From Escherichia coli (GTDB lineage: Bacteria; Pseudomonadota; Gammaproteobacteria; Enterobacterales; Enterobacteriaceae), in assembly GCF_003334765.1 (NCBI RefSeq), contig NZ_QOWT01000037.1: a stretch of 36,551 bases of DNA; one strand, given 5' to 3'. The position numbers and the translations under genes are program-made. Under the pieces are notes generated by a model. That model was not told where the DNA came from. It did not search any database and worked only from the letters and a program-made list of their open reading frames with translations. Below are positions 1 through 36,551 of the stretch, in pieces (position 1 is the first letter of the stretch; every line of letters begins with the position of its first letter).

Positions 1-928
1 TAAGCGTAACCGACAGGTTCTCCTTCATACCATATTAAATTTTTCCAGGTATTGCCGCTGCCTTATTTCGTCCCATAAAGGAAAACTCATCTGGGTTTCT
101 GACAAATACGCGAAACTCACAGCCCCTCAATATCAACCACACGTTGTAAGCCGGTAATACCTGAAAATCAGCCTATTACCGCCCACGCCTCCGGCACCAT
201 TCCCTTTTGATTTCGAATTCTTTGTTGTCGCTATACCGCTTAATGTTCCCGGTCCTCCGGTGCAGATAACACCGGACTTATCGTAGCGCTGGCTAAAAGT
301 TCAGGTGACCAGAAGGAAGCAGGAACACGATCGTAAAGTTTGCGGTCAGTTCCGTCAGTCGGTGGGCAACCGCAGAGTTACGGGCTTCCAGGTCCACAGG
401 AGTGAGTCTATAACGCGTGTGAAAAATCATTTTTTCTGGCGTTGACAGAACACATTACAGGCTGCCACTTACCCGGTGTCCCGCAATACAGCCTTAGTGT
501 TCCGTTATCGGGGATCCGGACGCACCGCAACAACCGGGGAAGTATTTCTGGTTTAGAGCTGTGTCAAGAGGGATTTCTCAGCCCCTCACTCACCGGCTCA
601 GTCTCAGAGCAGGAGCATTAATACGCTCAGTTCATGTCTTATACAGGAATGGGCACAGGGGGAGCTGGCGTGTCACTGCTGATTTTACGCATCAGCGTTC
701 ATGTATTTGCACTCTGATACATGAACGATTCACAGCGCTCTGTTACCGGAGAGATTTACTCTCTTAGCTTACTCTGGCAAATCCTTTACGTTACTCTCTG
801 ATGACTTCTTATATTTATAATACCAATCAGACAGCCTTATCCCATCGGTGATACCGAAGCCGGTCTGCGCGCCGGCTGACCCGTCATCGTTAAACTATCA
901 TTCACCGATTTTCTGTGAGGATTTTATC

Positions 929-1297
929 GTGTCAGACACACTTTCCGGGACAACGCATCCCGATGACAATGACGACCATCCCTGGTGGGGACTACCCTGC
1001 ACAGTGACGCCCTGTTTCGGCGCCCGTCTGGTGCAGGAGGGTAACCGCCTGCATTACCTTGCCGACCGCGCCGGTATCAGAGGCCTGTTCAGCGATGCAG
1101 ATGCGTACCACCTGGACCAGGCCTTTCCGCTGCTGATGAAACAACTGGAACTCATGCTCACCAGCGGTGAACTGAATCCCCGCCATCAGCATACCGTCAC
1201 GCTGTATGCAAAAGGTCTGACCTGCAAAGCTGACACTCTCGGTAGCGGTGGTTACGTTTATCTGGCTGTTTATCCGACGCCCGAAACGAAAAAGTAA
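929..1297 (+). CDS. CbeA/YeeU/YfjZ-family antitoxin of a type IV toxin-antitoxin pair
   Basis: ORF 848..1297 translation contains [37 protein letters not shown]..., typical of the YeeU/CbeA family (about 122 aa). In-frame GTG at 929 gives VSDTLSGTT... and a 122-aa product; the ATG at 848 would add a 27-aa extension. Paralog cannot be assigned. Confidence 0.8.
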
Positions 1298-1386
1298 ACC
1301 ACCGGAATAACCTTCTGCTCCGGCCTGGTGCTTTCACCACGCCACTTTTCCATTTTTCATCTCTGCATATCAGGAAAACCTTCAGT

Positions 1387-1761
1387 ATGAAAACATTACC
1401 CGATACACACGTACGGGAGGCATCGAGCTGCCCGTCTCCCGTCACCATCTGGCAGACTCTGCTCTCCCGACTACTGGGCCAGCATTACGGCCTTACACTG
1501 AATGACACACCGTTCGCCGATGAACGTGTGATTGAGCAGCATATTGAAGCTGGCATTTCACTGTGTGATGCGGTGAATTTTCTCGTGGAAAAATACGCGC
1601 TGGTGCGTACCGACCAGCCGGGATTCAGCACTTGTCCCCGCTCTCAGTTAATAAACAGTATTGATATCCTCCGGGCTCGCAGGGCGACCGGCCTGATGAC
1701 CCGCGACAATTACAGAACGGTAAATAACATTACCCTGGGTAAGCATCCGGAGAAACGATGA
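1387..1761 (+). CDS. CbtA/YeeV/YpjF/YkfI-family toxin (cytoskeleton-targeting, inhibits FtsZ/MreB)
   Basis: 124-aa [11 protein letters not shown]...[52 protein letters not shown]... matches the CbtA toxin family as recalled; sits directly downstream of the antitoxin gene. Confidence 0.85.
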
Positions 1762-2246
1762 AACTTTCCCTGATGCTGGAAGCCGACAGAATTAATGTGC
1801 AGGCACTGAACATGGGGCGAATTGTCGTTGACGTCGATGGTGTTAATCTCACTGAACTGATTAACAAGGTCGCTGAAAACGGTTATTCACTCCGCGTGGT
1901 GGAGGAATCCGACCAACAGTCAACCTGCACACTACCACCGTTTGCAACCCTTGCCGGCATACGCTGCAGTACCGCACATATCACGGAAAAGGATAACGCC
2001 TGGCTGTACTCGCTGTCGCATCAGACCAGTGACGTTGGTGAATCAGAATGGATTCATTTCACAGGTAGCGGATATCTGTTACGTACCGATGCGTGGTCAT
2101 ATCCGGTTCTGCGGCTTAAACGCCTGGGGCTGTCAAAAACGTTCCGTCGTCTGGTTATCACACTTACCCGACGTTATGGCGTCAGTCTCATTCATCTGGA
2201 TGCCAGCGCTGAATGCCTGCCGGGTTTACCCACTTTCAACTGGTAA
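1758..2246 (+). CDS. YeeW-like cryptic-prophage protein
   Basis: 162-aa ORF whose start overlaps the toxin stop (ATGA at 1758-1761); position and sequence are consistent with the yeeW-type gene that follows cbtA in CP4-like elements. Confidence 0.6.
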
Positions 2247-2257
2247 CCAGGAACAAC

Positions 2258-2455
2258 ATGAAATCATTAACCACGGAAACCGCACTGGATATTCTGATTG
2301 CGTGGCTGCAGGACAATATCGACTGCGAATCGGGAATTATCTTTGACAACAATGAGGATAAAACGGATTCAGCAGCACTGTTGCCCTGTATCGAACAGGC
2401 CAGAGAGGATATCCGTACCCTGCGCCAACTGCAGCTTCAGCACCAGAACCGGTGA
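2258..2455 (+). CDS. small hypothetical prophage-associated protein (65 aa)
   Basis: ATG at 2258 preceded by aggaac; product MKSLTTETALDILIAWLQDNIDCESG...; the longer ORF-track start at 2213 overlaps the upstream gene. Family not assigned. Confidence 0.4.
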   Translation: MKSLTTETALDILIAWLQDNIDCESGIIFDNNEDKTDSAALLPCIEQAREDIRTLRQLQLQHQNR

Positions 2456-2932
2456 GTCTTACTCACCAGACTTCATTCCACTGACGCCAGCCTGAACAGG
2501 GCTGGCATTTTCATTTATCTGCAAAAAGGAATATCGATTATGTCTGATATCACAGCCTACCGTCCGGAAGTGGTCAACGAGAATACGGACGTTATCTGCT
2601 CAACCAGCATCCGCCGCATTCTGGCTGTACGAAAGAGTTCACTGCTGCAAATCGACACAATTATCCGGCATCAAGTGAGCGATATCAGTTAACAGATATA
2701 GATGGAGAAGATGCTTTTATCCGGATTGGTTCTATCGCGATGGTGCGAGTACTACTTGATGCAATGAAGCCTGTCGAGGAAGATGACGAGTAACAGAGCT
2801 CGGTATCTCAATCAGGAGCTGATTGTCCTGGTTCGATGCCGAAAACCAGTGATTTTTCGTGTTGGTATCTGTGTTGGTATAAGATGATATTGTTTATTAT
2901 TAACAATTTTAAATCATGAGGTTAAGTCACAT

Positions 2933-2970
2933 GTTTGAGTCCGGCCTTCGCACCTTCGCACCTTCGCACC
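2933..2970. repeat. tRNA-Leu (leuX) 3'-end-like segment followed by 3 tandem copies of cttcgcac; probable island att remnant
   Basis: tttGAGTCCGGCCTTCGCACC resembles the T-arm/acceptor end of tRNA-Leu(CAA) as I recall it (GGTTCGAGTCCGGCCTTCGGCACCA); the 8-mer cttcgcac repeats at 2946-2953, 2954-2961 and 2962-2969. Confidence 0.5.
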
Positions 2971-3172
2971 ATCGGAACATCAATAGACATCAACGGACGT
3001 TTTTTTATGACTGAAATCCGCGCCACACAAGGCTTTTCGCTATTTTTCGCTCAACCTAAGTCAACCTACATCAACTTACTGATGTGGATACAGCTACAGC
3101 TGCGGCTATACCCCGATTCGATAATGTTTGTACCCACACAAAACCCTTGAAAGGCTACAAGGCTGAAATTGT

Positions 3173-3657
3173 CTAAACCATAGAGATGATTTTTATGATC
3201 CAGTCTTTCTCTTGTTGAGATAGTTCCAGTTTGCTCACTCGTGTTAAGAAGGTATTGATCACCTGAACATCCGAATTGGTGAGCCTATTTAATAGAGCGG
3301 GTGGTATACCTTTACTAACAATCGCTTTGCGGTGACTTTCGTAGTTTTTATTACTCATTGTTGATCCTAAAAAATCATTGTATGGCGGCATTGATCGTTT
3401 CCAGCAACCTTTACTTACTCACTTCGAACTGCATCCTCGTAGACAGTTCCACTACAATAATCGAAAAGGCGCGGATGTCCATTCAGGTATCCCGCTAATA
3501 CGTATAGCAATAACAATGGCTTATGCGGCGCGCGCTGTTCACCCTTGTGCCAGATTTTTATATTGGCAATTGCCTGCTGTAGCGATTTACTGGAAGCTAT
3601 TGATATCCCTGGCAGTGAAATAATTGCGATCATGCTCGCAAATTTTCTGCTGTTCAA
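3173..3657 (-). pseudogene. frameshifted gene of unknown function
   Basis: Two same-strand ORFs (3415..3657 and 3173..3391). The downstream frame is open from 3418, immediately after the upstream stop at 3415-3417, so a single frameshift in the ttacttactc tract would fuse them into a protein of about 160 aa. Confidence 0.35.
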
Positions 3658-3736
3658 GCCTGCAAGTGAAGATATATTACCTTGATCTCATTTGTTTTTT
3701 TGCTGCCTGTTCTGAGAACGTATAAGGACATTCTCC

Positions 3737-4387
3737 ATGAATAAACTCCCTGATCATCTTCCGCGGCGGTATATCATCGAAGCTATCCATTTATGGGATG
3801 CGGGAGAAACTCATCAGTTCCAGCCTGCGCGGTTGTATGAGATTGAATATCATGGCCGACGTTACCCCTCGAAGGCGATTGCTGGCATCGCAGCGACATT
3901 GATGACGGGGACGCAATTTACCCCTGCGGATTTCACCGGCGGAATAAAATCTAAATGTGTCAAGCTACTCATAGAGCAGGGATTTCATATTCATCTGGAT
4001 AAAGCCGCTGCGGCTCCCATAGCCGACGTTCTGTTCCCGGATGAGTTGCCGTCGCAGGAGACATACCTTGAAGGTGCGGCGATAAAGGTGACAGTAAACC
4101 GCTATGAACGCGATAAAAAGGCCCGAGATAAAGCGGTCGAACATCATGGATGCCAGTGCAACGTATGCGGTGTTGATCTGGTGAAGATCTATGGTGATAT
4201 CGCTGAAGGCTTTATCCATGTGCATCACCTGGTGCCGCTGTCAGCCATTAAAGAGGATTACCAGCTGGATCCAGTTAATGATTTGCTGCCTGTGTACCCT
4301 AATTGCCATGCGATGTTGCACCGACGCAAACCACCGTTTACGCCGGGGCAGTTAAAAGCGCTGATGGATGCGAATAAATCAAATTAA
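3737..4387 (+). CDS. HNH endonuclease, McrA-like C-terminal nuclease domain with an unassigned ~100-aa N-terminal domain
   Basis: 216-aa ORF; the C-terminus has HHGCQCNVCG...IHVHHLVPLS...YPNCHAMLH, a classic HNH (beta-beta-alpha-Me) motif resembling the McrA nuclease domain. aggaca lies upstream of the ATG. Confidence 0.7.
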   Translation: MNKLPDHLPRRYIIEAIHLWDAGETHQFQPARLYEIEYHGRRYPSKAIAGIAATLMTGTQFTPADFTGGIKSKCVKLLIEQGFHIHLDKAAAAPIADVLFPDELPSQETYLEGAAIKVTVNRYERDKKARDKAVEHHGCQCNVCGVDLVKIYGDIAEGFIHVHHLVPLSAIKEDYQLDPVNDLLPVYPNCHAMLHRRKPPFTPGQLKALMDANKSN

Positions 4388-4394
4388 TGAACGC

Positions 4395-5375
4395 TCACCT
4401 TTCGCGCCAAAACTGCAAAATTGCTTCTACAAACTTGTCAGAAATAATCCCCCGACGGGCTGCCGTGCTGAAATGACTGCTTCGCAGTGCCGTCGTCCAG
4501 TTCTCCGGTGACCGGTACGCTGAACCGTAATATCCCGTGCTTAAATCGTCCGGGTCTTCATCAGGCGCGTTCGTCAGTCCTCTTTCACCTTGTTGCTGGA
4601 AGTCGACGAAAATAATATTGGCTAAAACATTATTTTGATAATTGCCATAAATAACTTCATACGCATGAGGGAAATTTTCTTTCCAGTACCAGGTGGTATC
4701 GCCGCAAAACCACGGTGCGTCAGTAATATTATTAAGCTGAGAATGGTATTGTTTTAGATCCCTACGAAAGGCTTCAACCATATGATTAAAGTGTTGAGGG
4801 TGTGACGCGTAGTCACTGGTCATTAAGTCAAATTCGCCTTGCATCCAGCATACGCCGAGGAATTTGTTATGCGGATTTTTTGCCAGTGCGGCTCGCGTTC
4901 TGCTGACTAAATCCTGGTATAGCGGAGTATCCGTTCCCCAACGACAAGCATCATGGCTGGCTCCGTGCCGTTCTGAATATGTCCCTTCGCTGCCCGCGGT
5001 AAAAGCCGATCCGCCACGGCAACACGGAACGATGAGAACCCCTGCATTATCAGGAATAAAGGGCAGTAATTTCCGTGCTATATGCAGTGCCTGGCCAACG
5101 GTGCCGTACTGTGTTTGATGATTCGTTGCCAGAGGATGGTGATAACCCTGCATATCCTGAACATCGTGTGGGCAGTGAGTCAGTGGAATAATGTCGTTAA
5201 AGTGACATGACGGGCCTCCGGGATGCGTATGCGCAAATCTCGCTAATTGTTTAATTCTGGGATGAGGCGCATCTTCCCTGTCCGGTAATGGCAGTCCTTC
5301 GCCATACGCCATGGCATTAGACTGACCAGCAACGGTAAGAATATAGTAATAATCAGGCGATATTATTGCGTTCAT
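4395..5375 (-). CDS. nanS: 9-O-acetyl-N-acetylneuraminate esterase
   Basis: ORF 4395..5402 matches NanS/YjhS; start placed at the internal ATG (MNAIISPDYYYILTVAGQSNA...) for a 326-aa product. Confidence 0.9.
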   Translation of the reverse strand: MNAIISPDYYYILTVAGQSNAMAYGEGLPLPDREDAPHPRIKQLARFAHTHPGGPSCHFNDIIPLTHCPHDVQDMQGYHHPLATNHQTQYGTVGQALHIARKLLPFIPDNAGVLIVPCCRGGSAFTAGSEGTYSERHGASHDACRWGTDTPLYQDLVSRTRAALAKNPHNKFLGVCWMQGEFDLMTSDYASHPQHFNHMVEAFRRDLKQYHSQLNNITDAPWFCGDTTWYWKENFPHAYEVIYGNYQNNVLANIIFVDFQQQGERGLTNAPDEDPDDLSTGYYGSAYRSPENWTTALRSSHFSTAARRGIISDKFVEAILQFWRER

Positions 5376-5439
5376 ATAAATTTCGCGTAATTGAAATGAC
5401 AAATTGATAGCAGGGCCCCTTTACCGGGGCCCTGAAGCG

Positions 5440-6546
5440 TTAGTTTTGTACTGTGACTTTATTATCCTTCACAGAAATTAAAACTGAATCCATCACTGCT
5501 TTGCCGCCTGCAGTTTCACCGCCAATAATTAATAAACTATTATTCCAGGGCAATGATACTCCGTAGGCCCGACCTTGCGATAATTCACCCGATTTATCCC
5601 ATTTCCCGTTATACCAAAGATGAATATCAGCGCTATATGATTTTTTCAGGCCTTCATGCGCATAGTTCTTACCGTTCTGGTAATTTTCTCGTGAACCTTT
5701 GAATCCGGCCCCTCCAGCAAATATAAGAGAATCATTGCTTATCCCCGCAAAACCGCCAGCGACGCCATCTGGTGATGAGACGGGATCAAGCTTATTCCAT
5801 TTTAAATTATCACCGGTGAAGTCAAGTTCAAATACGGCATCCGTTCGCAATCCTGGTTTGGCTTCGCCATTAATAAGCCAGGTTTTATCACCTTTATTCA
5901 CAACCGCCGCACCAGCCGTTCCGTACCAGGGAGATTCGCCAGCGTAACTCCATTGCTGTGTTGAGGGATCAAAAGACAACAGAAACTTATTGAAGAAATA
6001 ATCTTCTGCTTTTTTGTCAAAATAGTAGGCGTTGATTTTATCTATAGCGGTTGAATCTTTTCCAGCTTCGTTGAGATCTTCAAAATAGCCATTGAAGATA
6101 TTCTGGTTAACACCGCCAGTAACATAAGCCTTGCCGTTGTGTACAAAAGTCACATGGCCCGCCATGCCCATCGGCGCGTGCGACATCAATTTAACCCAGC
6201 TATTGGTTTTGGGGTTGTATTTGTGTACGTCATTAAATACCTGAGTCAAGCCCTCGCTGTTTTTGCCAATGCCGCCAAACACATACAGATTGCCATCAAT
6301 AAATGCAGAGGTTGCTTGATCTCTCGGTCCGCCAGGGAATGCAGCTAACGCTGTCCATCTTTTATCTTTGGCCTGTGTATCCAGCTTGTACCATGCCGTA
6401 CCTGCGCTACCTAAACCAATGTAGACAGTGTCGTTATCAATTGCTCCGGTACCACTTTTAAATGGCACAGGAGTTTCCGGTAATACAGACGCGTTTGCGG
6501 CAAATGAAGCCATTATGATAGTAAGCGCCGTTATTGTTTTATTCAT
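5440..6546 (-). CDS. nanM: N-acetylneuraminate mutarotase (Kelch-repeat periplasmic protein)
   Basis: ORF 5440..6654 matches NanM/YjhT; start placed at MNKTITALTIIMASFAANA (signal peptide) for 368 aa. Confidence 0.9.
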   Translation of the reverse strand: MNKTITALTIIMASFAANASVLPETPVPFKSGTGAIDNDTVYIGLGSAGTAWYKLDTQAKDKRWTALAAFPGGPRDQATSAFIDGNLYVFGGIGKNSEGLTQVFNDVHKYNPKTNSWVKLMSHAPMGMAGHVTFVHNGKAYVTGGVNQNIFNGYFEDLNEAGKDSTAIDKINAYYFDKKAEDYFFNKFLLSFDPSTQQWSYAGESPWYGTAGAAVVNKGDKTWLINGEAKPGLRTDAVFELDFTGDNLKWNKLDPVSSPDGVAGGFAGISNDSLIFAGGAGFKGSRENYQNGKNYAHEGLKKSYSADIHLWYNGKWDKSGELSQGRAYGVSLPWNNSLLIIGGETAGGKAVMDSVLISVKDNKVTVQN

Positions 6547-6565
6547 TGTGACTGTCTCCTGTCTA

Positions 6566-7282
6566 CTACAGTTTAAATGACACACCAATGCGATAACTGT
6601 TTTCCGATAAATTATCTCTGCCGTTGTAAACACCCTGACGGTCAAGGTAGTCATATTCTATGTATGGCGTAATATCGGGCGTCATATGGTATTGTAGAAC
6701 AAATGCATTTTCCGTCGCCCATTTCTTATGGTTTGCATAGCGATAATCGTTCTGTTTACTGTATAGCGTCGTTTGCCATGCGAAGGTGAAATCACTATTA
6801 ATATGGTAAGTGACATATCCATCCCAACGATGAACGTTATCACGAGACATATCACCAGATAAGTCTTGTTGTCGGTAAGCTTTCCAGTCGTAACGATAGC
6901 GAATGCCAAAATTAAGATCTTTTGTCGCGTCCCAGGACAGTTTTACGTAGGGTCCGTAGCGTGTGCCATTGCTGCTAAAATGCGTTAACATTCCCGGGCG
7001 CACCGTCCATTGATCATCAAGTTTAATCGCGTAATTAACTTCAACCTGAACATCATTGAGTGCGGCATTTTCCTTTTTATTATCATGAATGGTATTCCAG
7101 GTATTACTTTCCATGCTTGCCCACCATCCATTTTGCCATCCCTCACTGACTTTGAGTCGAGTCTCATAGGCGTGGCTTCCACTACGATATCCACCACGTA
7201 CGTCCAGTGTCGCAGCCTGAGAAATTAATGGGGACGAAAAGCACAGTAATAATACGCTAGAAAGTATTTTAGCCTTTTTCAT
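6566..7282 (-). CDS. nanC: N-acetylneuraminic acid outer-membrane channel (KdgM family)
   Basis: ORF 6566..7291 matches NanC/YjhA (MKKAKILSSVLLLCFSSPLISQAATLDVRGGYRSG...); ATG at 7282 chosen, GTG at 7291 is an alternative. Confidence 0.9.
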   Translation of the reverse strand: MKKAKILSSVLLLCFSSPLISQAATLDVRGGYRSGSHAYETRLKVSEGWQNGWWASMESNTWNTIHDNKKENAALNDVQVEVNYAIKLDDQWTVRPGMLTHFSSNGTRYGPYVKLSWDATKDLNFGIRYRYDWKAYRQQDLSGDMSRDNVHRWDGYVTYHINSDFTFAWQTTLYSKQNDYRYANHKKWATENAFVLQYHMTPDITPYIEYDYLDRQGVYNGRDNLSENSYRIGVSFKL

Positions 7283-7707
7283 AAATTTCACTCATTTGTA
7301 GGATACAGAAAGCAATACAAAGCCCGCATAAACAATTAGCATTTATGTTGTGTAATATTTTTTTGCCAGACTTATAGTGTCTTTGGCAACCGGTAGCTGT
7401 ATTTTATATTTTTTGTATAATATCTCCTGTGAAAAATCTCTTTCCACATTATTTAAATAAACAGAGGGCCAGATTAAATACCTGAGTATAAAATCTCTGC
7501 TGATGTTTAATTGATTTGAATTTTCGTAAGCTATATCGCTTACTCAATCCATTTTACCCAGAGTCATAAAATAGAGTGTCTGTTGATCTCATTTTCATAT
7601 TCCTTTCAGACTGAAGTGCGTTTTCATCACCCGATGAGAAAGAACTGAAGTGATGTTTGCCATAGATTACGAGATGCCCAGTCTCATTGACTATCGCGGT
7701 GCACCTT

Positions 7708-7722
7708 TATACCTGTTATACC
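7708..7722. promoter_or_regulatory. NanR operator (GGTATA repeats) with adjacent Dam GATC site
   Basis: tatacctgttatacc is the reverse complement of GGTATAACAGGTATA; GATC follows at 7724-7727. It lies about 420 bp upstream of nanC and about 1 kb upstream of fimB, matching the known NanR site controlling nanC and fimB. Confidence 0.7.
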
Positions 7723-8735
7723 AGATCAAAAATCACGCAATCCATACAACAAAACCAGATTTGCAATTCGTGTCACAAAATATGTCGATCTTTTCCTAAG
7801 AAGCAGATGCCATGTGAAGACAGACGAACACTTGCATTGGTCTTCAAAAACTAAAGGTTTTCTTTTAACAATCTGTTTTGTAAATAATTTATTTAGAATC
7901 TAAACAAAGAAAGCTTTGCAAGCTAACTCAGTGAGCTTGGTGAAAATAAGTGTTTACCCGCCATCAGGCTGAGTATAATTCTCATCATGAAATATGTTTC
8001 TTGGTTTGTGGCTTGTAACTGGTCACTCCTGATGTCGATCTGGAGAGGCTTGTTGATGTTGGTGTTTTCAGGATGATGTTTCACTTAGTTTGTTTGCCGT
8101 ATCGCCCGGCGAATAGCTGTGATTGAGGAAGGTTTAAGTCGTAGTGACCAAAGCCATAGTTACCAACGGATGTAGATGAAAAAGCGTCGCCTGCGTTCCC
8201 CCATATCTCCAGGATAAAAGGGAATGTAACAATCTCATGGCCTAAGCTGACGAACCAGGCAGGAATAATCGCTAGGGATCTAAGAATTAGCATGATAATA
8301 GCCACTAAAAAATTACTGCGTTCCATGAAATAGCCATTTTGTGGCAAATGCAGTTGACTAATAATGTCATATGTGAGACGGCTAGTTGAACGAATATTAA
8401 ATTTTGCTGAATTTTTTATGTTGATTTTACTTGTTACAGAACATATCACATGATATATAGATAAGATTAGTTGCATTAATGATGAGGGTTATTATTCGAT
8501 TCGTATCAGATTTATAAATATATAAAGGTACATAGCATGCAAGAGCATGGCGTTTGTATGGCAAAGTTATTATAAGTAACTATCGCTACTCCATTTAAGT
8601 TCACTCAGAAGAACTGGTCCACTTACGTTAGTTATTAAGCAAACGTTCGCTTTTATAAACATAATCAGGATTAAAATGTTGGATTATTGCTAACCCAGCA
8701 CAGCTAGTGCGCGTCTGTAATTATAAGGGAAAACG

Positions 8736-9338
8736 ATGAAGAATAAGGCTGATAACAAAAAAAGGAACTTCCTGACCCATAGTGAAATCGAATCACTCCT
8801 TAAAGCAGCAAATACCGGGCCTCATGCAGCACGTAATTATTGTCTGACTTTGCTTTGTTTTATTCATGGTTTCCGGGCGAGTGAAATTTGTCGATTGAGG
8901 ATTTCGGATATTGATCTTAAGGCAAAGTGTATCTATATCCATCGATTAAAAAAAGGCTTTTCAACAACGCACCCGCTATTGAACAAAGAAGTTCAGGCTT
9001 TAAAAAACTGGTTGAGTATCCGTACTTCGTACCCGCATGCTGAGAGCGAATGGGTATTTTTATCGCGTAAGGGGAATCCGCTTTCTCGGCAACAGTTTTA
9101 CCATATTATCTCGACTTCCGGTGGTAATGCCGGGTTGTCACTGGAGATTCATCCGCACATGTTACGCCATTCGTGTGGTTTTGCTTTGGCGAATATGGGA
9201 ATAGATACGCGACTTATCCAGGATTATCTTGGGCATCGCAATATTCGTCATACTGTCTGGTATACCGCCAGCAATGCAGGGCGTTTTTACGGCATCTGGG
9301 ATAGGGCCAGAGGACGACAGCGTCACGCTGTTTTATAG
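8736..9338 (+). CDS. fimB: type 1 fimbriae switch recombinase FimB (tyrosine recombinase, ON<->OFF)
   Basis: 200-aa ORF MKNKADNKKRNFLTHSEIESLLKAANTG... with C-terminal RHSCGF...LGHRNIRHTVWYT recombinase motifs. Confidence 0.95.
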   Translation: MKNKADNKKRNFLTHSEIESLLKAANTGPHAARNYCLTLLCFIHGFRASEICRLRISDIDLKAKCIYIHRLKKGFSTTHPLLNKEVQALKNWLSIRTSYPHAESEWVFLSRKGNPLSRQQFYHIISTSGGNAGLSLEIHPHMLRHSCGFALANMGIDTRLIQDYLGHRNIRHTVWYTASNAGRFYGIWDRARGRQRHAVL

Positions 9339-9814
9339 AGATAGTTGAGATACCAGGGATGGTGTTAAAAACTACATTATTCTTACGATATATCAAAAAT
9401 GATTAACCATTTATTAATTGATGTTATTGTAAGTGTGATTCTTAATTATAATAATAAACATTAAGTTAACCATATCCATACAAAATACAATGGTTTATGT
9501 TCTTCAAAATAAATAAACAAAATCATTCATAAATTTACACATCACTTAAATTCATCTGTTTTCACATTTTTTCTTTATTTTTTAAGCAACTGGAAGTTAA
9601 TCCACTGCAATCTATTGTTATATTGAATCAAATCAATGAAAATAGATGTTATCACATCAGTGATATTTTATTTTTGTATGATATTTAATGTAATTGACTG
9701 ATAGCCACATCACTTCGTGTGTGGTTATCTTTTTATCTATTGGGCTAATTTTGACCGATTGAGGTTTCCTATAGGTATTCATTCAAATATATCTCAGTCA
9801 GGAGTACTACTATT

Positions 9815-10411
9815 GTGAGTAAACGTCGTTATCTTACCGGTAAAGAAGTTCAGGCCATGATGCAGGCGGTTTGTTACGGGGCAACGGGAGCCAGAGATTA
9901 TTGTCTTATTCTGTTGGCATATCGGCATGGGATGCGTATTAGTGAACTGCTTGATCTGCATTATCAGGACCTTGACCTTAATGAAGGTCGAATAAATATT
10001 CGCCGACTGAAGAACGGATTTTCTACCGTTCACCCGTTACGTTTTGATGAGCGTGAAGCCGTGGAACGCTGGACCCAGGAACGTGCTAACTGGAAAGGCG
10101 CTGACCGGACCGACGCTATATTTATTTCTCGCCGCGGGAGTCGGCTTTCTCGCCAGCAGGCCTATCGCATTATTCGCGATGCCGGTATTGAAGCTGGAAC
10201 CGTAACGCAGACTCATCCTCATATGTTAAGGCATGCTTGCGGTTATGAACTGGCGGAGCGTGGTGCAGATACCCGTTTAATTCAGGATTATCTCGGGCAT
10301 CGAAATATTCGCCATACTGTGCGTTATACCGCCAGTAATGCTGCTCGTTTTGCCGGATTATGGGAAAGAAATAATCTTATAAACGAAAAATTAAAAAGAG
10401 AAGAGGTTTAA
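9815..10411 (+). CDS. fimE: type 1 fimbriae switch recombinase FimE (ON->OFF biased)
   Basis: 198-aa ORF (V)SKRRYLTGKEVQAMMQAV... with GTG start at 9815; paralogous to FimB. Confidence 0.95.
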   Translation: MSKRRYLTGKEVQAMMQAVCYGATGARDYCLILLAYRHGMRISELLDLHYQDLDLNEGRINIRRLKNGFSTVHPLRFDEREAVERWTQERANWKGADRTDAIFISRRGSRLSRQQAYRIIRDAGIEAGTVTQTHPHMLRHACGYELAERGADTRLIQDYLGHRNIRHTVRYTASNAARFAGLWERNNLINEKLKREEV

Positions 10412-10458
10412 TTTAACTTATTGATAGTAAAGGTAAAAAACAAATAAATACAAGACAA

Positions 10459-10772
10459 TTGGGGCCAAAACTGTCCATATCATAAATAAGTTACGTATTT
10501 TTCTCAAGCATAAAAATATTATAAAACGACAAAAAGCATCTAACTGTTTGATATGTAAATCATTTCTCTTGTAAATTAATTTCACATCACCTCCGCTAAA
10601 TGTAAAGCTAACGTTTCTGTGTCTCGAAGCAACTTCCTCATTCTTCTCTCCAAAAACCACCTCATGCAATATAAAAATCTATAAATAAAGATAACAATAG
10701 AATATAAAGCCAACAAATAAACTGAAAAAGTTTGTGCGCGATGCTTTCCTCTATGAGTCAAAATGGCCCCAA
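10459..10772. promoter_or_regulatory. fimS: fimS invertible phase-variation element (314 bp) flanked by 9-bp inverted repeats; phase-OFF as sequenced
   Basis: TTGGGGCCA at 10459-10467 and its reverse complement TGGCCCCAA at 10764-10772 lie exactly 314 bp apart, between fimE and fimA. Confidence 0.85.
10479..10507 (-). promoter_or_regulatory. fimA sigma-70 promoter inside fimS, oriented toward fimE
   Basis: On the minus strand: -35 TTGAGA (10507-10502), 17-bp spacer, -10 TATGAT (10484-10479), next to the fimE-proximal inverted repeat. No comparable promoter is seen on the plus strand near the fimA-proximal repeat. Confidence 0.6.
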
Positions 10773-10891
10773 ATGTTTCATCTTTTGGGGGGAAACTGTG
10801 CAGTGTTGGCAGTCAAACTCGTTGACAAAACAAAGTGTACGGAACGACTGCCCATGTCGATTTAGAAATAGTTTTTTGAAAGGAAAGCAGT

Positions 10892-11446
10892 ATGAAAATT
10901 AAAACTCTGGCAATTGTTGTTCTGTCGGCTCTGTCCCTGAGTTCTACAGCGGCTCTGGCTGAAACTACACCCACGACGGTAAATGGTGGGACCGTTCACT
11001 TTAAAGGGGAAGTTGTTAACGCCGCTTGCGCAGTTGATGCAGGCTCTGTTGATCAAACCGTTCAGTTGGGCCAGGTTCGTACCGCTAGTCTGAAGCAGAC
11101 TGGAGCAACCAGCTCTGCTGTCGGTTTTAACATTCAGCTGAATGATTGCGATACCAGTGTTGCCACAAAAGCCGCTGTTGCCTTCTTGGGGACTGCGATT
11201 GACAGTGCTCATCCTAAAGTACTGGCTCTGCAGAGTTCAGCTGCGGGTAGCGCAACAAATGTTGGTGTGCAGATACTGGACAGAACAGGAAATGAGCTGA
11301 CGCTGGACGGTGCGACATTTAGTGCACAAACAACCCTGAATAACGGTACCAACACCATTCCGTTCCAGGCGCGTTATTATGCAATCGGCGAGGCAACCCC
11401 GGGTGCTGCTAATGCGGATGCGACCTTCAAGGTTCAGTATCAATAA
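10892..11446 (+). CDS. fimA: type 1 fimbrial major subunit (pilin)
   Basis: 184-aa ORF with signal peptide [23 protein letters not shown] and C-terminal ...ATFKVQYQ; aggaaag upstream. Confidence 0.95.
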
Positions 11447-17634: not shown

Positions 17635-17662
17635 GAGCCTGCCAATGGCAGGCTCAGGTGCT
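17635..17662. terminator. stem-loop between convergent fimH and gntP (possible terminator)
   Basis: gagcctgcc-aatg-gcaggctc hairpin, followed on the plus strand by aggtgctctttta; the U-tract is weak. Confidence 0.3.
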
Positions 17663-23062: not shown

Positions 23063-23075
23063 CTTATTATAATAA

Positions 23076-23106
23076 GCGCAAGGGTAAACGTTCCTTGCGC
23101 TTTCTT
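23076..23106 (+). terminator. rho-independent terminator downstream of uxuR
   Basis: GCGCAAGG-gtaaacgtt-CCTTGCGC stem-loop followed by TTTCTT. Confidence 0.65.
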
Positions 23107-24705: not shown

Positions 24706-25098
24706 ATGATGCGCCAATCACGTCAGGCTGTTTTACCTGAAATTTCAGGCAATAAAACGTCATCGCTGCGTAAATCAATATGTAGCGATCTCCTCACTCT
24801 TTTTAATTCTCCTCATTCGGCATTACCGTCATTACTTGTTTCAGGCATGCCCGAGTGGCAAGTGCATAACCAGAGCGACAAACATCTCCAGAGCTGGTAT
24901 TGCCGTCAGCTGCGTTCTGCACTGTTATTTCATGAGCCACGGATTGCGGCGTTGCAGGTCAATCTGAAAGAAGCGTACAGCCACACGCTGGCGATCAGCC
25001 TTGAGATAATGCTGTACCACGACGATGAACCGCTAACGTTTGATCTGGTCTGGGATAATGGCGGTTGGCGTAGTGCGACGCTCGAGAATGTCAGCTAA
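24706..25098 (+). CDS. iraD: anti-adaptor protein IraD (inhibits RssB-mediated RpoS degradation)
   Basis: ORF 24697..25098; ATG at 24706 gives [24 protein letters not shown]... (130 aa); the 3' end overlaps convergent hypT by 8 bp. Confidence 0.85.
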
Positions 25099-26002
25099 GT
25101 ACAATCTCCAGCTCGCGCAGTTCACGCCAGAAGCGTTCGGCAACTGGATTCATGCGGGTATTCATTCGGTATGCATAGGCCTGAATCGGGATCACCAGTT
25201 CGTCCCGATTCAGTACAACGAGCTGCCCGCTGCGAATTTCTTGTTGGATGGCGTACTCCGGCAGCCAGGCAATCCCACAGCCGTCGAGGGCAACCTGCTT
25301 TAAAAGCTCGCTCATCGAAGAGACAAAAAAGGTGCTGAAACTTAACTCACTGTGGCGCGTCAGGGTGCGATTAATCAATCGCCCCATGTAGGAGTTGCGG
25401 CTGTAATTCAGTAACGGAAAGTGTGGCTGCGCGAGGTTAAAAAGTGCTTCTCCGTGTTCGTCACTGGCGCAGACAGGGAACAATTGAGATTCAAATAAGC
25501 GAATGTGGTCAAACGGCGCTTCCAGCAAATCTTCGTCGTGAAAGGAAAAAATACAGTCACTTTGCCCTTCACGCAGTTTATCGACCGCTTCATCGACATC
25601 AATAGCTTCAATTGCCCAGGTAAAGAGCGGCGGCATCTGGCTGATAATGGACGGTAACAGCCCGAGGGAAAGAGAGTGTGCAGCGGCTATTTTAATTTTG
25701 CGTTGCGCGTAATCGCTGCCACCACGGAGTTCTGCAAGGTTGCTCTCTAACTGTTGCAACAGATGGCGGATCTGCGAATGGAATATTTTACCTTGTTCCG
25801 AGAGTTGCAGCGGCGTCACCTGGCGGTTAAACAATTCAACGCCAATCGCCTGTTCCAGCGCACGGATGCGGCGGCTGAATGCCGGTTGCGAGACGTTGCG
25901 ACTGACTGCTGCCTGGGAAAAATTGCGGCATTTTTCCAGGGTCAGAAAATCATAAAGCCATTTAGTTTCAATATTATGCAAAACCGCACCACAGTCATCC
26001 AT
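25091..26002 (-). CDS. hypT: LysR-type transcriptional regulator (hypochlorite-responsive HypT/YjiE)
   Basis: 303-aa ORF with an N-terminal LysR HTH (...[41 protein letters not shown]...). Confidence 0.9.
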
Positions 26003-34999: not shown

Positions 35000-36232
35000 T
35001 CACTGCTCCTCTGCCAGCTCGGCAGCCTGATGTTGGCGCACGCGATTAAGCAATCCCGCCAGGGTGAAAACGACGATAACGCCCGCCACGACGGCTAACA
35101 GATGAAACGGCAAGCGACCGCCGTTAAACCACAGCCACCGGCCGATTTCGACCGAGACAGACATCACCATCAGGATCACCATATTCAGCGATGCGGAGAC
35201 GGTCCCTTTCGGTAAGTTATTGGAAAACAGCGTAAAGCGGAATAAGGTCGGGAAGATCAAACCAATCCCGAAAGCATACAAACTGGTGCCCAGCACCGAC
35301 CACAGCCATACGTGCGGTGACAGCAGATTGCCGATAATCAACAGCGCGAGGCCAACCAGTTGAATGGGTACGGCACGCCAGATAAAGCGCGGTTCGGTCG
35401 GATCTTTAACGAAACGCGCCACGATGGCATTCGCGACAATCACCGCGCCGAACACCGGAACCTGTGTCCAGGCGAACTGCGAGGTCGTTAAGCCGCCTGC
35501 GTCAATCAGGATCACCGGCGAGACAGCCACCCAACTCATCATTGGGATATAGCTTAAAGAGATGGTTGCTGCACCAAAGAGGAACTGCCGATTGCAAAAG
35601 ACATTACGAAAATCGCGCAAGACGCTTTTGGCGCTAAATGAAACCGCGCCGCGCTTCACCGTCTCTGGCATCGCCAGCAGTAAGCCAACAAATGAGATAA
35701 AACCCATAATCGCAATGATGGCAAAAAGGACTTTCCAGTGTACAAAGTGCATCAGAGCTGCGCCGGAAAGCGGGCCGATAATCGGCGCAATCAGTACGAT
35801 GGAGGTGATAATCGCCATCAACCTGATCCCTTTTGTCTGGCCGAACGCCTCCTGCACCGTGACATAACCAACGGTGGCAATAAAACAGATACTGGTGCCC
35901 TGAATTGCACGCGCGATAAGAAACTGTGTCATAGACGTTGTGAACATTGTCGCAGCGCAGGCAAGGGTAAATATTAGCGCCCCGGTAATCAGCACCGGCC
36001 TGCGGCCAATCCTGTCGGAAAGCGGCCCCAGCAGCCACTGTAACGCCATACCGCCCGCGAGATAGAGACTGACGGCTGCCGGGGCCAGACTGACATCGGC
36101 ATTAAAATCACGGACCACATTAATGATCCCCGGCTGAATCAGGTCCGTCGACAGGTACGCGGCAAAATCATACAAAATCAACGCCATCGGGAAAAACAGC
36201 GTGGCGGCATGCGTTGCTTTTAATCCCGCCAT
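35000..36232 (-). CDS. mdtM: MFS multidrug efflux transporter
   Basis: ORF 35000..36259 (419 aa); the ATG at 36232 ([26 protein letters not shown]...) gives 410 aa; the ATG at 36259 has a stronger SD (taaggtga) and remains an alternative. Confidence 0.9.
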
Positions 36233-36551
36233 TAAGCCTTTACCAAAATGGTTATTCATCGTTCACCTTATTCGCTATATATCGCCATATATAGCGATGT
36301 TTTAGGCAAAGAACGACTTTTGCGCACGCTATTTTTTCATGCTTGTTTAAGACGTAATCCCGTAAGAGATAAACCTATCAGGAGAGATATTTATCAAACC
36401 ATTTCAGTGTCCTTTGCCAGGCAAGATCGGCGGCAGATTTGTCATAACGGGGCGTGGAATCATTATGGAATCCGGGTAATGCTGCCAACTTACTGATTTA
36501 GTGTATGATGGTGATTTTAAGGTGCTTGCGTGGCTTCCATTTCCATCAGAT

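Follow-up and report, generated by a model that had tools for sequence, protein, structure and literature searches.

A predicted ModE box of the yghW promoter upstream of a chimeric mdtM gene in Escherichia coli

Introduction

Near the end of the stretch of Escherichia coli DNA analysed here (36,551 nt, hereafter the window), a perfect palindrome stands directly upstream of mdtM, the gene of an efflux pump. This raises the question of what the element is and how it came to lie before this gene. A preliminary description of the window had offered two answers, i.e., an operator for an unidentified repressor or a leader-RNA hairpin masking the ribosome-binding site (RBS). ModE is a molybdate-sensing transcription factor, and its molybdate-loaded dimer recognises the half-sites ATCGnTATATA and TATATAnCGAT placed 6 bp apart. 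Promoter capture or replacement at efflux-pump genes via rearrangements associated with insertion sequences (IS) is a general phenomenon. The features of the region are collected in Table 1.

Table 1. Features of the mdtM upstream region in the window, ordered by position
Feature	Position	Strand	Remarks
mdtM proper (MFS multidrug efflux pump), from K-12 residue ~10	35000-36204	-	ORF list; RefSeq annotation, strain 300709
Junction, 7-bp microhomology CATGCCG	36205-36211	-	yghW codons 17-19 / K-12 mdtM codons 8-10
yghW-derived 5' coding fragment, codons 1-16, ATG at 36259-36257	36212-36259	-	Identical to YghW N-terminus
118-nt yghX-yghW intergenic copy, yghW promoter	36260-36377	-	TTGCCT at 36309-36304
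Shine-Dalgarno (SD) sequence of yghW-derived start	36264-36269	-	AAGGTG here, GAGGTG at native yghW loci
Predicted 28-bp ModE box	36271-36298		Minus (gene) strand ATCGCTATATA-TGGCGA-TATATAGCGAA; contains the palindrome arms
yghX' remnant (96 nt), last 31 codons and stop, dienelactone-hydrolase family	36378-36473	-	Alignment to native yghX
Promoter-like hybrid TTGGCA-18-AATGAT	36459-36488	-	Spans the IS1/yghX' junction, towards mdtM; consensus scan only, 9/12
IS1 left end (GGTAATGCTGCCAACTTACTGAT...)	36474-36551	+	Transposase reads away from mdtM; annotated pseudogene, internal stop

The palindrome and the ModE consensus

The inverted repeat cgctatatat-cgcc-atatatagcg was confirmed at 36273-36296 (the window around it, 36270-36299, reads ...attCGCTATATATcgccATATATAGCGatg...). 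Its distances to mdtM, which lies on the minus strand, are also as first described, with 14 nt from 36273 to the long start at 36259 and 41 nt to the RefSeq-style start at 36232. The repeat is perfect, but its arms are 11 nt and not 10 nt long, a repeat finder adding one base on each side (36272-36282 and 36287-36297, with a loop of 4 nt). Judged on its symmetry alone, the repeat is only moderately improbable: 0.095 perfect repeats with 11-nt arms and loops of up to 10 nt are expected per window, and at least one was present in 7% of 200 dinucleotide shuffles. Despite this weak statistic, a chance palindrome was ruled out by the match to the ModE consensus and by the conservation across 80 species presented below. 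Three other perfect inverted repeats with arms of 10-11 nt occur elsewhere in the window, at 696-727 (CGTTCATGTAT, loop 10), at 17635-17655 between fimH and gntP (GAGCCTGCCA, loop 1) and at 23074-23102 after uxuR (AAGCGCAAGG, loop 9); the latter two are probably terminators.

The consensus for ModE sites in E. coli is ATCGNTATATA-N6-TATATANCGAT (Rodionov et al. 2004, PMC545781). The 28-bp box of the window agrees with it at 21 of the 22 specified bases, with the N6 spacing exact (spacer TGGCGA, 6 nt) and with dyad symmetry in which exactly 6 bp separate the TATATA half-site cores. It is the sole match with up to three mismatches in 36.5 kb, and no match was obtained in 100 shuffles. The pattern is the same as in the established K-12 ModE sites; the best sites in these classical promoters carry four (modA, moaA), three (dmsA) or two (napF) mismatches, and the site of K-12 yghW, with a single mismatch, is nearer to the consensus than all of them. 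The modE gene lies outside the window; 5392 of 5426 E. coli genomes have it, among them strain 300709, the fusion region of which is 100% identical to the window. The palindrome is thus very probably the core of a predicted ModE box, and in consensus, spacing, resemblance to known sites, phylogenetic footprint and presence of the regulator the predicted element fits the family of ModE operators. The operator proposed in the preliminary description was therefore right in kind, as a protein operator, but its regulator is not unidentified, given the near-perfect match to ModE. A second, weak ModE-like dyad with four mismatches (ATCGCTGCGTA-AATCAA-TATGTAGCGAT, 24762-24789) falls within the coding region of iraD and was taken as probably due to chance.

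Structure and distribution of the yghW'-'mdtM fusion

No ModE-like site was found upstream of the native mdtM of K-12, even when six mismatches were allowed, and a native mdtM operator was therefore ruled out. The alignments indicate instead that the box is not native to mdtM and arrived by a duplication of ~270 bp with an in-frame fusion. The position "beside an efflux-pump gene", as the palindrome had been described, is correct, but it is accidental, the box being that of the yghW promoter. Positions 36205-36473 represent a second copy of the 3' end of yghX, the yghX-yghW spacer and yghW codons 1-16. In a four-way alignment of the window, the K-12 yghX-yghW region, the K-12 mdtM upstream region and the native locus of 6EVA, the sequences meeting at the junction are ...AAAGCAACG-CATGCCG-ACAG in yghW and ...TACCCGC-CATGCCG-CCACGCTG in mdtM. 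The join is in frame, and the new N-terminus displaces MPRFFTR-HAATLFF of K-12. The whole chimeric ORF (35000-36259) comprises 419 aa, of which RefSeq annotates 410 aa from 36232.

When 36150-36551 was compared by megablast with 5426 complete E. coli genomes, the full arrangement was found in only 663 of them. In nearly all other genomes, 36202-36474 matched the yghX-yghW region with ~98% identity, and this segment alone as query gave matches in 5423 of the 5426 genomes; carriers of the mdtM-linked copy showed two locations, i.e., the native yghX-yghW locus and the copy. A junction-specific query of 181 nt matched 659 genomes. The fusion is accordingly carried by ~655-663 of the 5426 genomes (about 12%), which also keep the native locus, with the order gpr / yghX <- 118-nt spacer <- yghW <- hybO. 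The yghX' remnant is an annotated partial pseudogene in every fusion genome examined. The yghX'-IS1 neighbourhood was the same in all 13 fusion copies sampled, and the wider order yjiN-mdtM-yghX'-IS1 (pseudogene, internal stop)-brnT-brnA-yjiA was seen in all four copies viewed with broader flanks. The K-12 neighbours of mdtM (ytiE, rpnD and yjiR) are missing in fusion genomes, in which a decayed IS1 and the toxin-antitoxin pair brnT-brnA lie between mdtM and yjiA.

Strain 300709 is colinear with the window from about 12.5 kb to the window end. The right 25 kb are nearly identical, and the left ~11 kb (1-11000), upstream of or around the fim switch, are not colinear, with IS remnants in the reference. 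In this colinear strain hypT (hypochlorite-response regulator; window 25091-26002) is annotated as a pseudogene with an internal stop.

Conservation of the box upstream of yghW

The yghW loci of 80 species of Enterobacteriaceae were compared, including Escherichia, Citrobacter, Salmonella, Klebsiella, Raoultella, Kluyvera, Kosakonia, Enterobacter, Cedecea, Buttiauxella, Shimwellia and others. The element was present upstream of yghW in all 80 species, with the consensus ATCGCTATATA-ATTTTA-TATATAACGAT, and the exact 18-base core CGNTATATA-N6-TATATANCG occurred in 72 of them. Compared with the full consensus, 48 of the 80 loci had no mismatch, 20 had one, 10 had two and 2 had three. The N6 spacing was kept, and the distance from the end of the box to the start codon of yghW was 10-21 nt in 79 of the 80 loci. 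Different genera have different genes 5' of yghW, yet the box is retained next to yghW, and it therefore belongs to yghW. This gene is conserved and encodes a DUF2623 protein of 95 aa with unknown function; it has the best-conserved predicted ModE box found here, which points to an unrecognised role of YghW in molybdenum homeostasis.

The box is preceded by a second conserved motif, AAATAGCG(C), which resembles the right half-site of ModE. Its distance from the box is 24 nt in 22 species and 34 nt in Escherichia, so that the two placements are one helical turn apart; in the window the motif is found at ~36333-36340 on the minus strand. It may serve as an auxiliary half-site or as an element of the promoter.

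Promoter geometry

A perfect TATAAT occupies box positions 8-13 in 59 of 82 sequences, where it forms the best sigma-70-like promoter. With the -10 hexamer inside the box in most species, only part of the box would be transcribed. The constitutive sigma-70 promoter proposed for yghW in K-12 is TTGCCT-17-GACAAT (Shimada et al., PMC3946193). Its GACAAT lies at the centre of the ModE box, and transcripts starting there would include the distal arm only. In the window the corresponding position (36286-36281) reads GGCGAT, the GGCG spacer allele destroying the GACAAT of K-12, and no good sense promoter of the window allele passed a simple sigma-70 scan. Based on these two observations, the sense promoter of the window may be weak. 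The GGCG allele is present in at least 1611 native loci and is therefore a normal variant and not a sign of decay. The transcription start site supplements of Kim (2012) have no entry for yghW.

In the promoter-like hybrid at the IS1 junction, TTGGCA is located in the terminal repeat of IS1 and AATGAT in yghX'; this candidate site could provide ModE-independent read-through to mdtM. On the plus strand, 36340-36496 contains an AGGAGA motif followed by ATT and a short ORF opposite yghW/yghX. The ORF is about 30 aa long in K-12, where it ends with ...GIRD and a stop, and its C-terminus is altered by the IS1 insertion in the window. This ORF might be the morA peptide (see below) with an unusual start codon.

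Variation among fusion copies

Among 13 fusion copies, 12 sites were variable within 269 nt, and 7 of the 12 fell in the 36 nt of the SD sequence and the box (36264-36299; binomial p = 3e-4). The polymorphic SD positions are 36267 and 36269. Native loci of K-12, 6EVA and four other Escherichia lineages have GAGG as the SD sequence. Alleles were counted with exact 99-nt queries, for which a single mismatch falls below the 99% identity band. In ~654 fusion genomes, the SD allele of the window (AAGG) was found in 77, GAAG in 127 and AAAG in 219, and the native-like GAGG haplotype occurred in only one. AAAG combined with G->A at 36273 was found in a further haplotype of 164 genomes, about a quarter of the total. 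Position 36273, in the CG of the right ModE half-site, is invariant in the 49 distinct native boxes of the 80 species. Two native haplotypes served as a control; both have GAGG and no change in the right half-site, and they were found in 1611 and 2545 genomes.

All four combinations at the two SD sites occur among the fusion copies, which indicates recurrent mutation. In strain 203740 the native locus is of the K-12 type and the fusion copy of the window type, so the copy evolves separately from the native locus. The simplest reading of the recurrent SD changes would be selection lowering translation from the captured yghW start, with founder effects as a possible alternative. With a weaker SD sequence, translation may start instead at the second ATG (36232), i.e., the RefSeq start. 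Control by ModE may have been lost or relaxed in the sub-lineage with G->A at 36273; since 164 fusion genomes carry this change, the fusion evidently tolerates an operator that is not strictly conserved.

Discussion

Considering the results as a whole, it is likely that the palindrome is part of a ModE operator which belongs to the yghW promoter, was transplanted by the fusion and now controls the chimeric mdtM. In the fusion, a copy of ~270 bp from yghX-yghW was joined at the microhomology beside a decayed IS1 and replaces the native promoter and N-terminus of mdtM. The ModE-molybdate dimer would bind the box and exclude RNA polymerase or block it immediately, since the box covers every plausible -10 and +1 position and ends 13 nt before the ATG. 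Like modABC, the chimeric yghW'-'mdtM would then be repressed in cells well supplied with molybdate and released from repression when molybdate runs short. The agreement with the ModE consensus, the conservation with yghW, the fusion with its distribution and the presence of modE are observations; the binding of ModE to this copy, the sign of regulation and the response of mdtM to molybdate are inferences, and for repression of the fused mdtM by the predicted box the balance tips only slightly in favour.

The molybdate iModulon of Salmonella Typhimurium, derived by independent-component analysis of transcriptomes, consists of modA, modB, modC, STM0770, STM0771, STM3142 and yghW (PMC9764980). 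This composition fits repression of yghW by ModE alongside modABC. For K-12, Kurata et al. (2013; J Bacteriol 195:4496) placed the yghW locus with its antisense gene morA under direct ModE control, and citing papers credit these authors with yghW/morA as an antisense gene pair. The native yghW ModE site is thus already known in K-12. Genomic SELEX targets of ModE reportedly include the morA promoter on the strand opposite yghW, with binding said to have been reported at the native K-12 locus and with ModE said to activate more targets than it represses. Given these reports, the sign of regulation proposed for the sense direction in E. coli is tentative.

The element can be compared with three known systems. 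Like the operator of modABC, a classical ModE-repressed promoter, it has a dyad of TATAT-type half-sites with CG flanks, a 6-bp spacing and an overlap with the core promoter; repression with molybdate would be expected here too, and yghW of Salmonella co-varies with modABC. However, the modA site (GTCGTTATATT-GTCGCC-TACATAACGTT, four mismatches) is much farther from the consensus than the window box, and repression has been established experimentally at modA whereas it is predicted at the window box. With the yghW/morA operator of K-12 (Kurata et al. 2013), ATCGCTATATA-TGACAA-TATATAGCGAA, the window shares the same element at the same distance from the yghW ATG. The window box differs in being a paralogous copy that carries the GGCG spacer allele, an allele shared with many native loci, and in standing next to IS1 before a chimeric yghW'-'mdtM at the mdtM locus, besides the native copy. 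As in IS-associated promoter capture at efflux genes, a native efflux promoter has been replaced by foreign regulatory DNA adjoining an IS. In contrast to such cases, the new promoter is a complete chromosomal module (operator, RBS and 16 codons) instead of an IS-borne or hybrid outward promoter; its source lies 1.4 Mb away, the join was made through microhomology, and the outcome looks like down-tuning through a weakened SD sequence, not over-expression.

Two alternatives take the palindrome as an element that acts in RNA. An mRNA leader hairpin with control over translation or stability resembles known RBS-masking hairpins and attenuators in that the sequence 2 nt upstream of the SD can be drawn as a stable stem-loop; if transcribed, it would fold with -13.7 kcal/mol (z = -4.9), and in a 76-nt fold the flanks UUUGCCU and AGGUGAA would pair and bury the SD sequence. 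In contrast to such leaders, base identity and not pairing is conserved here. The specified consensus positions of the 80-species boxes carry ~2 bits each and are nearly invariant, whereas the N positions 5 and 24 change independently of each other, so that 18 of the 49 distinct sequences have a mismatch there (mostly C.A), and compensatory changes are almost absent elsewhere. Since the N positions are left unpaired while the specified bases stay, a protein operator and not an RNA hairpin is indicated. The predicted stability also varies widely (-13.7 kcal/mol in E. coli, -3.8 in K. pneumoniae, -7.2 in Kluyvera and -17.7 in Salmonella), and an RNA family was dismissed because an Rfam covariance-model search of 36000-36551 returned no relevant match at E <= 10. 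Moreover, the likely -10 inside the element would leave the 5' arm out of the RNA, so that the hairpin would be possible only with transcription entering upstream, e.g., from the predicted site at the IS1 junction. The masking hairpin of the preliminary description was rejected on these grounds, and a leader hairpin of any kind is very unlikely. An intrinsic terminator for plus-strand (antisense) transcription, with the hairpin followed by TGTTTT, is more improbable still. A terminator scan flags the element on the plus strand, and in other genera the box is preceded by an A-run, which on the antisense strand reads as a T-run following the hairpin; however, the stem is AT-rich with only three G-C pairs, there is no convergent gene that would need termination, and the symmetry is better explained by the match to a protein-binding consensus.

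The other two alternatives accept the ModE box and concern its effect on mdtM. It is rather unlikely that the box mainly controls a plus-strand transcript from a morA-type antisense promoter, with its position in the sense direction being incidental. The site is symmetric, Kurata et al. (2013) name the non-annotated morA, overlapping or antisense to yghW, as a ModE target, and K-12 has TTCATC-17-TATATT on the plus strand with the -10 inside the box. However, the regular placement of the box 10-21 nt before the yghW start in 79 of 80 species, the sense-strand TATAAT embedded in 59 of 82 sequences and the co-variation of Salmonella yghW itself with modABC argue for the sense direction; in the window the plus-strand -10 becomes TATATC and no plus-strand promoter passed the scan. 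Antisense and sense roles of the box are not mutually exclusive. Somewhat less likely again is a box that is a functionless passenger, with mdtM transcribed from elsewhere, e.g., from the IS1/yghX' hybrid site, and with little effect of ModE. The TTGGCA-18-AATGAT site does point to mdtM, the window allele lacks an obvious sense -10, the 164 genomes are mutated at an otherwise invariant box position, and the polymorphism is concentrated in the box and SD region. Yet the 28-bp box of the window is identical to that of the native 6EVA locus in the alignment, and the 99-nt native haplotype comprising the SD sequence, most of the box and the GGCG spacer was found exactly in 1611 genomes. A dimer 13 nt before the start codon would still block initiation or an elongating polymerase, and the clustered changes look directional (SD weakening) and not like random decay.

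A yghW operator transplanted to mdtM remains the preferred explanation. A literature search for mdtM, ModE and molybdate together found no paper, and a transplanted ModE box before mdtM appears to be undescribed in the literature searched. The palindrome itself is ordinary, since both the regulator and this type of operator are known, and the native copy at yghW has already been linked to ModE; the residual novelty is the regulatory rewiring of an efflux pump and its later tuning. For annotation, the results mean that the gene named "mdtM" in about 655 complete E. coli genomes is in fact a yghW'-'mdtM chimera, the true start and promoter of which come from another locus, and for which RefSeq picks the second ATG.

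We suggest tentatively, as a reading somewhat short of an even chance, that MdtM (multidrug and bile-salt efflux) has moved into the ModE regulon in about one-eighth of sequenced E. coli genomes through capture of the whole yghW control module, and that its SD sequence, and in some lineages the operator, was then repeatedly weakened by independent mutations. If true, this would be a natural, population-scale case in which regulation was rewired and then adjusted by compensatory changes. An efflux pump implicated in tolerance to drugs, bile salts and alkaline pH may then answer to molybdate and not to its native signals, and molybdate control of mdtM could confound comparisons of efflux phenotypes between strains. 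The RBS and operator changes of the fusion copies, set against the unchanged common native haplotypes, would offer a tractable natural case of tuning after promoter capture.
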